Shown here piece after piece: positions 38 to 60,200 of a stretch of DNA of 64,000 nt (the stretch's first letter is position 1; the number at the start of each line of letters is the position of its first letter). A program made the position numbers and the translations under genes. The stretch lies in NCBI GenBank assembly GCA_963740175.1, contig CAVUDL010000006.1, forward strand, positions 31,067 through 95,066, given 5' to 3'. The stretch comes from an uncultured Gemmatimonadales bacterium (GTDB lineage: Bacteria > Gemmatimonadota > Gemmatimonadetes > Gemmatimonadales > GWC2-71-9). The notes under the pieces are model-generated. The model did not search any database. It saw nothing but the letters and a program-made list of their open reading frames with translations, and had not been told where the DNA came from.

Positions 38-61
38 GCTGCCCCGCTGCCCCGCTGCCCC
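38..61. repeat. Tandem octamer array (GCTGCCCC)x3 abutting the ettA stop codon
   Basis: Read directly: gctgcccc three times at 38-61; ettA stop (tta on + strand) at 63-65. On the ettA sense strand this is GGGGCAGC x3. The same unit recurs near 25.3, 35.8, 53.0, 58.2 and 59.8 kb. Confidence 0.9.
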
Positions 62-62
62 C

Positions 63-1741
63 TTAATGCACCAGCTTCTTGTACCGGATCCGGTGCGGCT
101 GATCCACTGCGGCGCCCTTCCGCTTGTGGTAGTCGGCGGCGTACTCCTGGTAGTTGCCCTCGTACCACACCACCTCGCTGTTGCCTTCGAACGCGAGGAT
201 GTGGGTGGCGATGCGATCGAGGAACCAGCGGTCATGGCTGATCACGACCGCGCAGCCGGCGAATCCCAGCAGGGCCTCCTCCAGCGCCCGCAGGGTATCC
301 ACGTCGAGATCGTTGGTGGGCTCGTCGAGCAGCAGCAGGTTGCCGCCGCTCTTGAGCAGCTTGGCGAGGTGCAGCCGGTTTCGCTCCCCGCCTGACAGGG
401 TCCCCACCTTCTTCTGCTGATCCGCTCCGCGGAAGTTGAAGCCCGCGGCATAGGCCCGCGCATTGACGCTGCGGCGTCCGAACTGGAGCTGGTCCTGGCC
501 GCCCGAGATCTCCTGGTAGACCGTGTTGTTCGGGTCGAGGCTGTCGCGGCTCTGGTCCACGTAGGCGATCTGCACCGTGGAGCCCACGGTGAGTGTGCCC
601 GCGTCCGGCTGCTCCTGGCCCGTGATCATCCGGAAGAGCGTGGTCTTGCCGGCGCCGTTGGGGCCGATCACACCGACGATGCCGCCGCGCGGCAGCGAGA
701 AGCTGAGATTCTCGAACAGCAGCCGGTCACCGAAGCCCTTCGCGAGGTCCTTTGCCACTACCACTTCATCGCCCAGCCGCTCCGGCACCGGGATCAGGAT
801 CTCGGTATTGCCCTCGGTCTGGCGCTCCGCGGCTTCGCGCAACTCCTCATACCGGGTGATGCGGGCCTTGCTCTTGGCCTGGCGCGCCCGGGGCGACATG
901 CGCACCCACTCGAGCTCACGCTGCAGCGTCTTCTGGCGCGCCGACGCCTGCTTCTCCTCCTGGCCCAGCCGCTGCTCCTTCTGCTCCAGCCAGGAGGAAT
1001 AGTTTCCCTCCCACGGAATCCCCGCGCCCTGGTACAGCTCGAGGATCCAGCCGGCCACGTTGTCCAGGAAGTAGCGGTCGTGAGTCACCGCCACGACCGT
1101 GCCGGGAAACTCGGCCAGGTAGCGCTCCAGCCACCAGACGCTCTCGGCATCCAGGTGATTGGTCGGCTCATCCAGGAGCAGCATGTCCGGTTGCTCCAGC
1201 AGCAGGCGGCACAACGCCACCCGCCGCCGCTCGCCGCCTGAGATCTTACCCACCTCGGCGTCGCCCGGAGGGAGCCGCAGCGCGTCCATGGCCATGATCG
1301 ATCTTGTGGTCCAGCTCCCAGAGACCCAGCGTGTCGATGCGCTCCTGAAGGTTCCCCTGCTTCTCCAGCAGCCGCGTCATCTCCTCATCGTCCATCGGCT
1401 CGGCGAAGCGGGCGCTGATCTCATTGAACTGGTCGAGAATCGCCTGTTGCTCCTTGACGCCTTCCATCACGTTGCCGCGGACATCCTTCGCCGGGTCGAG
1501 CTGCGGGCTCCTGGGGCAGAAACCCGATCCGGGTACCGGGAAGGGGGCGAGCGTCGCCCATGAAATCCTTGTCCACCCCCGCCATGATCCGGAGCAGGGA
1601 AGACTTGCCCGCGCCGTTCCCGCCCAGGACGCCGATCTTGGCGCCGGGGAAGAAGGACAGGTAAATGCCCTTGAGGATCTCGCGGGAGGGGGGCACGACC
1701 TTTCGGAGGTCGCGCATCGTGAAGATGTATTCGCCGGCCAT
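63..1741 (-). CDS. ettA: ABC-F ATPase, energy-dependent translational throttle EttA-like; two apparent frameshifts in this assembly
   Basis: Three minus-strand pieces assemble into one ABC-F protein: 1741..1421 ([15 protein letters not shown]...GGNGAGKSS), a middle piece in the frame of ORF 1246..1818 ([29 protein letters not shown]), and 1295..63 ([15 protein letters not shown], second Walker [23 protein letters not shown]). Frame changes occur near the GGG run at 1505-1507 and at about 1290-1293. Confidence 0.85.
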
Positions 1742-1782
1742 AGGGATGGGAAGATAAGGGAGTCATTGCGAGGCGTGCGAAG

Positions 1783-57195: not shown

Positions 57196-57228
57196 AGGGG
57201 GAATGTAGCAATGGACTCGGAGGCGCGT

Positions 57229-57287
57229 GACGGGAAGGATGCAGACGGTCCTTCCCGTCCTTCCCGTCCTTTTTCCCGCCTTCCCGC
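57229..57287. repeat. Hairpin plus CCTTCCCGT-type 9-mer repeats abutting the gltB stop
   Basis: Perfect 11-bp stem gacgggaagga (57229-57239) / tccttcccgtc (57249-57259), followed by cttcccgtcctttttcccgccttcccgc up to the gltB stop at 57287-57289. Confidence 0.85.
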
Positions 57288-60200
57288 TACGCGCTGCGGC
57301 GCTCGAGCACCGGCTCTCCCTCGATCGAGGCGCTGAGATAGGCAGCCCTGATCGTCGCCACCTGATCCGCCGCGCCTTTGGGTGTGATCTTGCGAAAATG
57401 CGGCAGGAATTCGTCCCAGCGAACCAGGATGTTGCGGGCCCTGGCGCTGACGGTGTTCTCCTCGTGCTCGCGCACCAGCTTCTTCAACAGCTCCGCGTCC
57501 TCATCATCCGGGCCGGTCAGCTCCACCATGTCGTGGTTCACGCGATTGGCGAACGTCCCGGCCTCGTCCATGACGTACGCAACGCCGTTCGACATGCCGG
57601 CGGCAAAGTTACGGCCGGCTCGGCCCAGCACCACCACAATGCCACCGGTCATGTACTCGCAGCAGTGGTTGCCCGCGCCTTCGACGACTGCGACCGCGCC
57701 GGAGTTCCGCACCGCGAAACGATCCCCGGCCTGACCGGCGGCGAAAAGCTTCCCGGCGGTGGCCCCGTAGAGCGAGGTGTTGCCGATGATCAGGTGCTGG
57801 TGCGACAGGTCGGCGTAGCTTGCTTTCCTGAACGGCCGGATGGTGATCTCCCCTCCGCTCAGCCCTTTGGCGACGTAGTCGTTCGCCTCGCCCTCGAGCT
57901 CCAGGTGCACCCCACGGCAGAGGAACGCGCCAAAGCTCTGGCCCGCGGTGCCGCTGAAGCGGAGACGGACCGACCCATGGGGGAGGCCCGCATCGCCATG
58001 GCGCTCGGCGATGGCCCCCGCTACCCGGGCCCCCACCGCCAAATGATGGTTACTGATCTGGTAGTTGCCGGAGAACGGGAGACTGCAATCGAGGTACGGC
58101 TCCAGCTCACCCAGGATCTCGTTATCGAGCGACACCAAACCCGGCCGATCGTTCCGGTCGACAGTTCTCCGTAGCTCTTGCTGCCCCGCTGCCCCCTCGC
58201 TTGTTGGCTCGGGGCAGGCTCCGCTGCCCCCCTGAGTTTCCGCCTCGCTGCCCCGCTGCCCGCCCAGTAGCAGCGACAAATCGAGCATCTGCGCCCGCGG
58301 CACGTCCGGTCGCTCGGTGCGCACCAGCAGATCGTTGCGGCCGATGATCTCGTCCAGCGACCGCGCGCCCAGGCGGGACAGAATGTCGCGCACCTCCTCG
58401 GCGATGAGGGTGAAGTAGGCGATCACCTGCTCCGGCGTACCTCGGAACTTTGCCCGCAGATCCTCGCGCTGAGTGGCGATGCCGGTGGGACAGGTGTTGA
58501 TGTGGCACTGTCGAGCCATGGCGCATCCCAGGGCGACCAGTGGCGCGGTGCCGAACCCGTAGCTCTCGGCGCCGAGCAATGCCGCGATTACCACATCGCG
58601 CCCGGTCTTGAACCCACCGTCGGTGCGCACCTCGATGCGATGGCGCAGCCCGTTACGCACCAGCGTGGCCTGCGCCTCGGCCAGTCCGAGTTCCCAGGGC
58701 GAGCCGGCGTGTTTGATGGATGAGAGCGGCGACGCCCCAGTACCACCGTTGTGACCCGCGATCAGCACGTAGTCCGCGTAGGCCTTGGCCACGCCGGCCG
58801 CGATGGTGCCCACACCGGTCTCCGACACCAGCTTCACGCCGATCCGGGCCCGTGGATTGACGGTCTTGAGATCGTGGATCAGCTGGGCCAGGTCCTCGAT
58901 CGAGTAGATGTCATGGTGCGGCGGCGGCGATATGAGCTGGATGCCTGGGACCGCGTGCCGAAGCCTCGCTATCAGGTCGGTCACCTTGTGCGCCGGGAGC
59001 TGGCCACCTTCACCGGGCTTGGCTCCCTGCACGATCTTGATCTCCAGCTCTTCGGCTCGAGTCAGATACTCGGTGGTGACGCCGAACCGCGCGGAGGCGA
59101 CCTGCTTGATCCGGTTGTCGGCCCGGTCGCCGTTGCCGAAGCCATGATAATTGGCCGGGTCCTCCCCGCCTTCTCCGGAGTTAGAGCGGGCGCCCATGCG
59201 GTTCATCGCGATCGAGAGCGTCGCGTGGGCCTCGGGTGAGAGCGCCCCCAGCGACATGGCAGATGAGACGAAGCGGCGGCGGATCTCCTCCACCGGCTCG
59301 ACCTGGTCCAGCGATATCGTGTCGCCATCGCGAAAGCCGAGCAGATCCCGCGGCCCGGCCGGACGACGGGCGGCATTCTTGGTGAGGAAGGATTCGTATG
59401 CTCCCTCCGTCCTCTCCGTCCTCTCCGTCCTCTCCGCCCTCTCCGTCCTCTTCACCCGTCCTCCCCCCACCGCGCTCTGCAGCGCCACCACGATCCCGGG
59501 CGCCCACCCATGGTCCTCACCGTCTTTCCGAAAGCGCACCCGGCCGTGGTCCGGCAGGGAGGAAGCTTCTTGCCTGCCGTACGCCGGTGCATGCCGCGCC
59601 AGCACGTCCTCGGCGATTTCCTCGAAGCCGATGCCGCCGATGGGCGAAGCGGTCCCCGCGAAGCATGAGGCGATGACTTCATTGCCCAGACCCAGCGCCT
59701 CGAAGATCTGGGCACCGCAGTAGGAGGAAAGTGTGGAGATCCCCATCTTCGACAGGATCTTGAGCAATCCGTTCTCTGCAGCGCTCCGGTAGCTGAGCCG
59801 CGCACCGGCGGGATCCAGACACTCTTCTACCCCCTTCTGCCCCGCTGCCCCGCGGCCCCGCTGACCTTCCCCGCTGAAGACCCCGTCAATGCTCTCCAAG
59901 GCCAGCCACGGATGCACCGCCTCCGCGCCGTAGCCGATGAGGGTAGCGTAGTGATGGATGTCGAAGGCATCGCCCGCCTCCGCGACCAAGCCCACCCTGG
60001 CCCGCAGGCCCGTCTGGACCAGGTGCTGCCGAACTGCGCCGATGGCCAGGAGCATGGGGAGAGGCGCCCTCCGTTCACTGGCGGCGCGATCGCTGATGAT
60101 GAGGATATGGGCCCCCCGCCGTGCGGCCCGCTCGGCCGAACGCCGCAGAGCGGTGAGGGCTGATTTGAGGCCGGCGGTCCCCTTCGAGGGATTCCAGAGT

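Follow-up and report, generated by a model that had tools for sequence, protein, structure and literature searches.

The DNA analysed here, called the window below, is a 64 kb stretch of contig CAVUDL010000006.1 from an uncultured bacterium of the Gemmatimonadales; it has 66% G+C and contains no tRNA genes. Among its genes are ettA, thrC, thrB, thrA, infA, queE, speA, queF, gltB and leuA, and those for a sigma factor, a citrate synthase, an M28 peptidase and an acyl-CoA dehydrogenase. Just past many of these genes, in the spacers between them and in some cases in frame within them lie tandem arrays of 7- to 9-nt units, often as two arrays of opposite orientation that can fold into one long hairpin. 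The feature is real, striking and lineage-wide, and it is a variant within a known but unexplained kind of bacterial repeat. The gltB product of the window is at most 85% identical to the gltB products of soil Gemmatimonadales metagenome-assembled genomes (MAGs), and on this identity the source organism is placed as an unsampled member of the order.

Sequences and analysis

Tandem arrays were detected with Tandem Repeats Finder (TRF), and window counts refer to arrays of at least 2.8 copies. The open reading frames (ORFs) of the window were annotated with Pfam, while genes in all loci were called with a home-made program that combines codon log-odds with interval scheduling. The caller recovers the Pfam-supported genes; its start codons and its treatment of frameshifted genes are imperfect, and gene starts are approximate. 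Relatives were sampled by a gltB scan, which gave 80 loci (gltB ±10 kb, one per species, 1.45 Mb); the window plus these 80 loci are called the combined sample. A second metagenome scan, with a citrate synthase query, gave another 80 loci. Near-identical relatives, in which filled and empty sites could be compared, were sought there, and the only close relative was L081 at 92% amino acid identity, at which intergenic DNA can already no longer be aligned with the window. Hairpin z-scores compare the fold energy of a locus with that of dinucleotide shuffles, and the inverted-partner test looked for a reverse-complement array within 200 nt, with complement-only arrays as the control. Rfam at gathering thresholds returned no match across the whole window.

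Several genes of the window are split across frames, namely ettA, the glucose/sorbosone dehydrogenase (GSDH) gene, thrC, thrB and, in two places, the DUF2339 gene (split-frame places at 1200-1500, 2900-3200, 4083-4111, 5480-5780, 25560-25660 and 26400-26570). Either the long-read assembly has single-base indel errors at these places, as it seems, or the genes are pseudogenes, and because of such apparent frameshifts the copy numbers given below for window arrays may not be exact.

Array loci in the window

A sequence-only reading of the window had placed 7- to 9-nt tandem repeats at a series of positions and had counted at least 12 gene boundaries with arrays. TRF detects arrays at every one of these positions, and twelve such boundaries were confirmed. 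That reading also had the arrays paired in opposite orientation, which holds for about ten loci and fails at 38, 53042, 59405 and 59837, where there is no inverted partner. On folding, seven loci form strong hairpins, with z from -4.7 to -9.9 (15749-15876, 3705-3776, 20165-20295, 25278-25446, 35788-35890, 46895-47095 and 52785-52852), three form moderate ones, with z from -2.4 to -3.5 (45230-45340, 57196-57290 and 29262-29345), and four show no significant fold against dinucleotide shuffles (1-66, 8560-8640, 43725-43850 and 58175-58265), these being solitary or decayed arrays.

Arrays in the window cluster 0-16 nt past stop codons. The first unit begins 0-2 nt past the stop at gltB, ettA and queE, and elsewhere the stop lies within the first unit, as TGA in GTGAGCGG (GSDH, speA), TAA in GTAAGCGG (thrC) or TAG in GGTCTAG (infA). 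At the left edge of the window, a solitary (GGGGCAGC)x3 array on the ettA sense strand (38-61, minus strand) lies 1 nt past the ettA stop at 63-65; it has no inverted partner within the window and forms no hairpin (z +0.9). Between two convergent genes, an inverted pair of GTGAGCGG-type units and CCGCTTAC x4 (3707-3774; ΔG -41.8, z -5.7) contains the GSDH stop (TGA, 3726-3728) in its left arm and the thrC stop (TAA, minus strand, 3764-3766) in its right arm. A pair of ATTGGCT x2.9 and AGCCAAT x6.7 at 15754-15871 (plus strand; ΔG -68.2, z -9.9) starts 5 nt past the sigma-factor stop, encloses a canonical terminator at 15787-15817 and ends shortly before the next predicted start at 15875. The pair of (GCGGGAAGG)x4 and (TTCCTGTCC)x4 at 20171-20292 (plus strand, z -7.4) begins at the stop of an ORF ending at 20171 and lies upstream of, or overlaps, the start of a solute-binding-protein gene. 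At infA, the stop (TAG, 29273-29275) falls inside the first unit of GGTCTAG-type arrays with a GACCCTAGAC partner (29269-29345, plus strand, z -3.5); a bidirectional canonical terminator follows at 29350-29383, and one further CTAGACC copy lies beyond it.

Similar arrangements recur in the right half of the window. Between queE (a radical-SAM gene on the minus strand) and the start of an HD-domain gene there is a pair of GCGGGGCA x2 and GCTGCCCC x4.4 (35792-35888, minus strand; ΔG -63.6, z -4.7), with the G-rich arm after the queE stop on the sense strand. The convergent spacer of speA and citrate synthase holds degenerate GTGAGCA-type units and a partner (43729-43850), which fold weakly (z -1.3) and include the speA stop (TGA, 43772-43774) inside one unit. 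Past the M28 peptidase gene, whose own C-terminal tail is encoded by a (GGACAGGC)x3.8 array (46848-46877, plus strand; stop at 46881-46883), a long pair of GCGTGAGTGGGACAAGGACAAGCGTGAGCGGGAC and its complement, whose arms stand about 110 nt apart, begins 16 nt after the stop (46899-47090, plus strand; ΔG -103.6, z -5.9). A pair of AAGCGTGAGCGGGAC and its complement (52785-52852, minus strand; ΔG -37.8, z -5.5) lies 3 nt past the acyl-CoA dehydrogenase stop (52856-52858) and upstream of queF. At gltB, (ACGGGAAGG)x4 on the sense strand begins 0 nt past the stop, with one complementary unit and upstream of a DEAD-box helicase gene (57210-57286, minus strand, z -2.6); the same array occupies the same place in L002, L004 and L007.

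Two further loci, 8614 and 45234, are not at 3' ends but between divergent gene starts. The first consists of a two-copy CAATAGC array and a decayed partner in the thrA/DUF2062 spacer (8560-8633, z -0.8), and the second is an inverted pair of GGTCTAT x4 and GACTCTC x7 between citrate synthase and the M28 peptidase (45237-45335, z -2.4). The earlier statement that canonical terminators coexist with the arrays is correct: they were found at 1789-1814, 15787-15817, 29350-29383 and 62501-62537.

Abundance, pairing and placement

Arrays of period 7, 8 and 9 number 6, 8 and 4 in the window, against means of 0.1, 0.25 and 0.5 in 20 block shuffles. The combined sample holds 101 arrays of period 7 and 123 of period 8, against 48 of period 6 and 6 of period 10. 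In DNA with a coding share of 90%, such a dominance of periods 7 and 8 is abnormal. TRF arrays of period 7-9 reach 13 copies. An inverted partner within 200 nt accompanies 66 of 131 period-7 arrays, as compared with 6 of 131 in the complement-only control. The partner excess is weaker for period 8 (37 vs 23 in the control), and in the same sample periods 6, 9 and 10 show none over the control.

The proposal that arrays hug stop codons was upheld with a ten-fold excess in the combined sample: of 198 elements, 62 have their start at -30 to +20 nt relative to a stop, compared with 6.2 expected from random placement. In same-strand spacers, the elements have a median distance of 9 nt to the stop and of 38 nt to the start that follows, and 38 are nearer the stop vs 13 nearer the start (p = 6e-4). 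Of 79 intergenic elements, same-strand spacers hold 51, convergent spacers 19 and divergent spacers, which account for 40% of the intergenic length, 9. About half of all elements (95/198) lie inside called genes, a count inflated by the recurrent orthologous sites in gltB, ilvB and the acyl-CoA dehydrogenase gene, towards which the sample is biased; in the window alone, 6 of about 18 loci are coding.

The coding and intergenic arrays differ in their units. Units that contain a stop triplet occur in 4 of 93 deep-coding arrays vs 53 of 96 intergenic arrays, and the under-representation in coding DNA holds only for stop-containing 7-mers. A stop triplet is present in 77% of the 7-mer units vs about 27% of random units at 66% G+C, an enrichment that is explained in part by the lower G+C of the 7-mer units.

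Arrays inside protein-coding genes

Contrary to the sequence-only reading, not all loci lie at gene boundaries: the arrays at 58180, 59405, 59837 and 53042 and the pair at 25283 are in frame inside genes. Three of them are housed in gltB (57287-62083, minus strand), which encodes 1598 aa and has its four domains intact; they occupy inter-domain segments or a hypervariable loop. GCTGCCCC-type units at 58180-58261 (z +0.2) encode about aa 1274-1301, between the Glu_synthase and GXGXG domains; (AGGACGGAG)x5.2 at 59405-59451 encodes aa 877-892 as RTE peptide repeats between the central and FMN domains; and (CGGGGCAG)x3.4 at 59837-59863 encodes aa 740-749 in the hypervariable loop of the central domain. 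All three are on the minus strand, as is a solitary (CGGGGCAG)x2.8 array in the acyl-CoA dehydrogenase gene (53042-53063), where it replaces an ancestral KDPxNRGP loop with a gain of 18 nt. The DUF2339 gene carries a complete inverted pair of (GCGGGGCA)x7 and (GCTGCCCC)x7 (25282-25443, plus strand; ΔG -119, z -7.2), which encodes the hypervariable linker from an invariant N-terminal helix to the membrane domain. Many database homologues of the DUF2339 N-terminus (P0001-P0035) are partial and stand on contigs that are typically 0.5-6 kb long, some of them at least 15.5 kb. Metagenome assemblies may be interrupted at the arrays, and short-read MAGs would then give too low an estimate of their abundance.

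In relatives, complete inverted pairs are found in the inter-domain linker of ilvB (acetolactate synthase) and in the C-terminal tail of ilvC. In-frame arrays thus recur at orthologous hypervariable sites of gltB, ilvB, ilvC, the acyl-CoA dehydrogenase gene and the DUF2339 gene, and at these sites the repeat-free ancestral state persists in other species. The coding arrays are imperfect, and the reading frame is kept in every species examined. An 8-nt period is read in all three frames and gives a peptide period of 8 aa, which indicates that the process acts on DNA and not on the peptide.

The arrays of the ilvB linker are all variants of GGCGGNNN and substitute for other sequence at roughly constant length. 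The two arms pair better within species (-56.5 kcal/mol) than across species (-45.6 kcal/mol), a difference reached in none of 5000 permutations.

Polarity, copy number and turnover

Of 54 pairs, 46 begin with the G-rich arm and 5 with the C-rich arm, a rule that applies to both strands; all window pairs are G-first. The sense strand is G-rich in 17 of 18 solitary intergenic 8-mer arrays (same-strand 10 vs 1, convergent-adjacent 7 vs 0) and in 47 vs 12 of the 59 solitary coding 8-mer arrays. Orientation in the window follows the gene strand, which means that it tracks transcription and not replication. The commonest copy number is four, and this is the copy number of 30 of the 63 intergenic 7-mer arrays that lack a run of three G (G3 run).

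We distinguished 232 canonical unit families over 81 genomes. Near relatives share families and distant ones differ, and about a dozen genomes, sister genomes among them, are array-free over the 15-25 kb that were sampled. In the window, the GCTGCCCC unit recurs at six unrelated loci, coding as well as non-coding, and the closest relatives carry it at further sites; different units are found in other clades. Copies of one family share only the 7- to 9-nt unit, with unrelated spacers and flanks; a motif of about 19 nt, GGGACAAGCGTGAGCGGGA, common to 46899 and 52793 is a partial exception. Individual sites turn over as well: L081 lacks the pair at 45237 despite a citrate synthase/M28 peptidase spacer of equal length, and in L007, as compared with its close sister L009, a clean insertion of about 65 nt lies immediately past the gltB stop. 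At the same site, L025 has a 14-nt direct repeat (GGCGCTCGATACCA x2, L025 14430-14470) straight past the gltB stop, followed by a canonical terminator; this is a longer unit at a place where other species bear a 9-mer array.

Comparison with known repeats

The arrays had been said to match no described class of element, but a match exists. Heptamer arrays of the unit GGGAATC occur in Xanthomonas with 70-75 convergent inverted pairs per genome, at most 50 bp from a stop codon or overlapping it (Rehm et al., 2015; PMC4692102). Spacers of divergent ORFs and coding regions contain fewer of them than expected, and arrays run from 2 to more than 20 copies, with a preference for four (PMC4692102). 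Related GGGGA(C/T)T heptamers are known from Nostoc, and G-quadruplex formation has been proposed; the Xanthomonas and Nostoc arrays are not linked to mobile elements, and their function is unknown (PMC4692102). The same paper cites tandem heptanucleotide repeats in Calothrix PCC 7601 (PMC4692102).

The arrays described here are the same kind of element as the Xanthomonas GGGAATC and the Nostoc/Calothrix heptamer arrays. They share with those of Xanthomonas and Nostoc the head-to-tail units of 6-9 nt, the preference for four copies, the frequent convergent inverted pairs with the G-rich strand first, the over-representation between same-strand ORFs and near stop codons, and the rarity between divergent ORFs. 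The Calothrix heptamers are reportedly the short tandemly repeated repetitive (STRR) sequences of Mazel et al. in 1990, and heptamers of the Nostoc/Calothrix type have been on record since that year. Differences are also evident. The host here belongs to the Gemmatimonadota, and several families of 7, 8 and 9 nt co-exist where the Xanthomonas and Nostoc arrays have one heptamer. Units such as GCTGCCCC, ATTGGCT, GGTCTAG, GTGAGCGG and ACGGGAAGG are unlike the G-quadruplex-prone GGGNATC type, and most 7-mers have no G3 run. Unlike in Xanthomonas, 8- and 9-mers are common in frame inside conserved genes, and unlike in Xanthomonas and Nostoc, orthologous arrays switch unit between species while their arms stay complementary. 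Four features are new: several 7-, 8- and 9-nt unit families in one genome, a strict G-first polarity (46 pairs vs 5), a four-copy preference even without G-runs, and the in-frame colonisation of protein linkers by arrays with co-evolving arms.

Repetitive extragenic palindromic (REP) sequences, with the bacterial interspersed mosaic elements (BIMEs) and REP doublets forming hairpins (REPINs) built from them, are single conserved imperfect palindromes of 20-40 nt, extragenic by definition and linked to REP-associated tyrosine transposases (RAYTs). REPs are known to influence the stability of mRNA as well as termination and translation in the vicinity of stop codons. The arrays resemble this group as dispersed hairpin-forming repeats that often come as inverted doublets, fall into species-specific families and turn over fast, with intergenic copies concentrated at 3' ends and in intercistronic spacers and avoiding promoters. 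They differ in having no 20- to 40-nt palindrome common to a family and in the many copies in frame inside ORFs. The latter property recalls Rickettsia palindromic elements (RPEs), which are about 100-150 bp long, have a conserved consensus and a conserved peptide, and sit in frame in housekeeping genes (PMC10969869). Both are palindromic repeat DNA in frame in unrelated housekeeping genes at sites compatible with the protein fold; unlike RPEs, the arrays have variable length, short units and no conserved element, and most copies are intergenic. Intrinsic terminators are likewise G+C-rich hairpins just past stop codons, but the arrays have no U-tract, have much longer stems and occur also inside ORFs and in promoter spacers. 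Finally, TAACTGA heptamer direct repeats of Beggiatoaceae, Cyanobacteria and Bacteroidetes, whose function is unknown, are comparable as abundant intergenic heptamer direct repeats of 2-6 copies next to gene ends; they differ in lying mostly just upstream of starts, in having a single unit and in the ratio of one indirect repeat to 169 direct sets (MacGregor, 2015; PMC4679880).

Origin and possible function

We consider the arrays to be a lineage-specific family of long-unit simple sequence repeats, primarily self-propagating repeat DNA with REP-like behaviour, a view that we favour and hold with about even confidence. Abundance, pairing, polarity, placement, turnover and arm co-evolution are established facts, from which we infer the following mechanism. 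Replication slippage would create and resize arrays. Template switching between the arms, or selection on pairing, may maintain complementarity, and exchange among dispersed copies, or a putative mobilising activity, may maintain a few unit families in each genome. Purifying selection would spare arrays at harmless sites, that is past or across stop codons and in same-strand or convergent spacers, and stop-free 8- and 9-mers would be tolerated in frame in disordered linkers, loops and C-terminal tails. Transcription may act as a filter on orientation, such that the G-rich strand is the sense strand and the G-rich arm comes first; speculatively, this rule could amount to the avoidance of C-rich unpaired RNA, which would recruit Rho. 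Where intergenic pairs are transcribed, they would fold into long hairpins free of a U-tract, and probably behave like REP elements, acting as barriers or stabilisers at 3' ends and in places taking over from terminators.

Several points weigh against self-propagating repeat DNA as the explanation. No mobilising or templating enzyme was identified and there is neither a target-site duplication nor a conserved core, which leaves the spread of one unit family to hundreds of sites unexplained. Arrays might stand so tightly, at 0-16 nt, behind stop codons through direct selection for a 3'-end function and not through tolerance. The same could be said of the (ACGGGAAGG)x4 array conserved past gltB in four species (82-84% amino acid identity), whose silent sites are probably saturated, and of the decayed terminator hairpin in L007. 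Arm co-evolution could likewise come from selection instead of template switching. In addition, genes were called with a home-made program, and since the 80 loci represent orthologous neighbourhoods, the counts are non-independent.

Another view, and the one put forward in the sequence-only reading, is that the arrays constitute a dedicated second kind of transcript 3'-end signal. Kept past stop codons by selection, such a signal could be a terminator that needs no U-tract, a processing site of the RNase III type or a stabilising hairpin. We regard this view as possible but unlikely. Part of it stands: the arrays are non-random, the hairpins tolerate shifts of register and are very stable, with stems of about 28-32 bp as follows from the four-copy preference, and the ten-fold excess at stops, the position nearer the stop than the next start and the depletion in divergent spacers all fit a 3'-end role. 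At gltB, L003, L009, L024 and L025 lack (ACGGGAAGG)x4 and have a hairpin with a T-rich tail past the stop instead, and in L007 the terminator hairpin is decayed beside the array, which fits some functional overlap with terminators.

Other observations do not agree with a dedicated signal. A T-run of at least 4 follows the 3' arm in only 2 of 42 sense cases, equal to the antisense side. An advantage of the sense strand, as expected from G·U pairing in RNA, was sought in the fold energies; the sense strand was the more stable in 8 vs 18 same-strand cases and in 6 vs 7 coding cases. Such sense/antisense energies neither support a function of the RNA nor decide against one, and two loci, 20165-20295 (-84.9 kcal/mol on the plus strand vs -56.6 on the minus strand) and 3705-3776, are clearly more stable on the sense strand. 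Complete pairs also lie in the essential ORF ilvB and in the DUF2339 ORF, where termination would be harmful, and some pairs lie in divergent promoter spacers (45237, 8614); the pairs at all these places cannot be terminators. At two loci (15787 and 29350) a canonical terminator is enclosed or adjoined by the arrays, many arrays are solitary and form no hairpin, and some sister genomes are array-free in the sampled DNA.

The arrays might alternatively be made or maintained by a dedicated novel process, which we consider decidedly unlikely in either of two versions. In an enzymatic version, an enzyme could add G-rich units to 3' ends at staggered nicks or breaks, in a target-primed or telomerase-like manner or as a hairpin-specific transposase. 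If true, this would account for the G-first polarity on both strands, for one family at hundreds of sites and for arms that can flank sequence already in place, such as the terminator at 15787. In the other version, selection could act on the hairpins even within ORFs, with U-tract-independent termination or RNase III-type signals past stops and translation-pause sites between protein domains, and the arm co-evolution in the ilvB linker would then be explained.

Non-autonomous mobile elements of the type of miniature inverted-repeat transposable elements, REPINs or RPEs, inserted by a hairpin-recognising transposase (RAYT or the TnpA of IS200/IS605) and lengthened by slippage, are an improbable source. 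Their activity would explain why one unit family stands at many unrelated loci per genome, why arrays are present or absent among close relatives and patchy across genomes, and why the L007 insertion is clean relative to L009, and the Rickettsia elements are a precedent for the occupation of genes in frame. However, direct matches between flanks, the mark of target-site duplication, did not exceed in length those of shuffled controls. Within a family, the copies have neither a conserved internal sequence nor a terminal motif in common and their spacers are unrelated, and the arrays of the ilvB linker and of the citrate synthase/M28 peptidase spacer replace sequence at constant length. Moreover, no transposase domain was present among the window ORFs scanned with Pfam, which represent only 64 kb of the genome.

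It is very unlikely that the arrays are G-quadruplex-forming regulatory repeats, as was proposed for the Xanthomonas and Nostoc heptamers. Several families do have at least four tracts of three or more G, for instance (GGGGCAGC)n at 25282, and the (ACGGGAAGG)x4 array past gltB, in the window as in three relatives, has about four such tracts (range 3-7); the four-copy preference and the G-rich sense strand would also be consistent with quadruplexes. Against this, the four-copy preference is strongest in 7-mers without a G3 run, most period-7 families (ATTGGCT, GGTCTAG, GTGAGCG) cannot form a quadruplex, most intergenic G-run arrays have only 2-3 tracts, and the complementary arm would compete with the quadruplex. 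As a general explanation, G-quadruplex formation is ruled out, the four-copy preference being present without G-runs.

That the arrays are assembly or sequencing artefacts, as the apparent frameshifts in conserved window genes and the indel-prone long-read assembly they suggest might imply, or phase-variation repeats, in which a change by one 7- or 8-nt unit would shift the frame as at contingency loci, is extremely unlikely, since orthologous arrays recur in dozens of independent short-read and long-read Gemmatimonadales assemblies and hence are not artefacts, the hosts are housekeeping enzymes (gltB, ilvB, ilvC) and not surface or variable genes, and the coding arrays are imperfect and preserve the frame.

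Significance

Inverted-pair arrays of short units near stop codons have now been found in three unrelated phyla, represented by Xanthomonas, the heterocystous cyanobacteria and the Gemmatimonadota, and in none of the three do they have an accepted function or a known origin. Any explanation has to account for a G-first polarity linked to transcription, a four-unit length independent of G-quadruplex potential, many families that turn over, arms that remain complementary while the unit changes, and the in-frame tolerance in the linkers of essential enzymes. The question of origin can be tested by comparative genomics together with Term-seq in a culturable relative. In practical terms, protein linkers become longer and more diverse through the arrays, short-read assemblies may be interrupted by them, and gene callers can be misled at starts as well as stops.

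Other features of the window

A stretch of about 3.5 kb at 16277-19900 contains ORFs (16277-16807, 16914-17417 and 17552-19618) without Pfam matches and with low codon-usage scores, and several weak terminator-like matches. At 1838-2059 (minus strand) a small stand-alone protein of 73 aa with a SWIB/MDM2 domain (E = 9e-26) is encoded, and the canonical terminator at 1789-1814 follows. SWIB/MDM2 domains are familiar chiefly from chromatin proteins of eukaryotes. The divergent gltB-leuA spacer (62084-62565, about 480 nt) has a strong hairpin at 62501-62537 (plus strand), about 30 nt before the leuA start and followed by TTTTCTTTT, which could be a leader or attenuator and had no match in Rfam; two arrays, GAGATT x4 and GGGGACAG x2, lie in the same spacer.

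A perfect palindrome-like motif, AACTTGCTGAACAGCAAGCAAG, is located at 55432-55453 (minus strand), immediately upstream of a TetR-family gene, which itself comes before the acyl-CoA dehydrogenase gene, against a chance expectation of 0.01 matches in the window. The motif is conserved in many relatives, being found downstream of gltB in L013, L016, L018-L020, L023, L024, L026, L032, L035 and L040, and it is probably the TetR operator.

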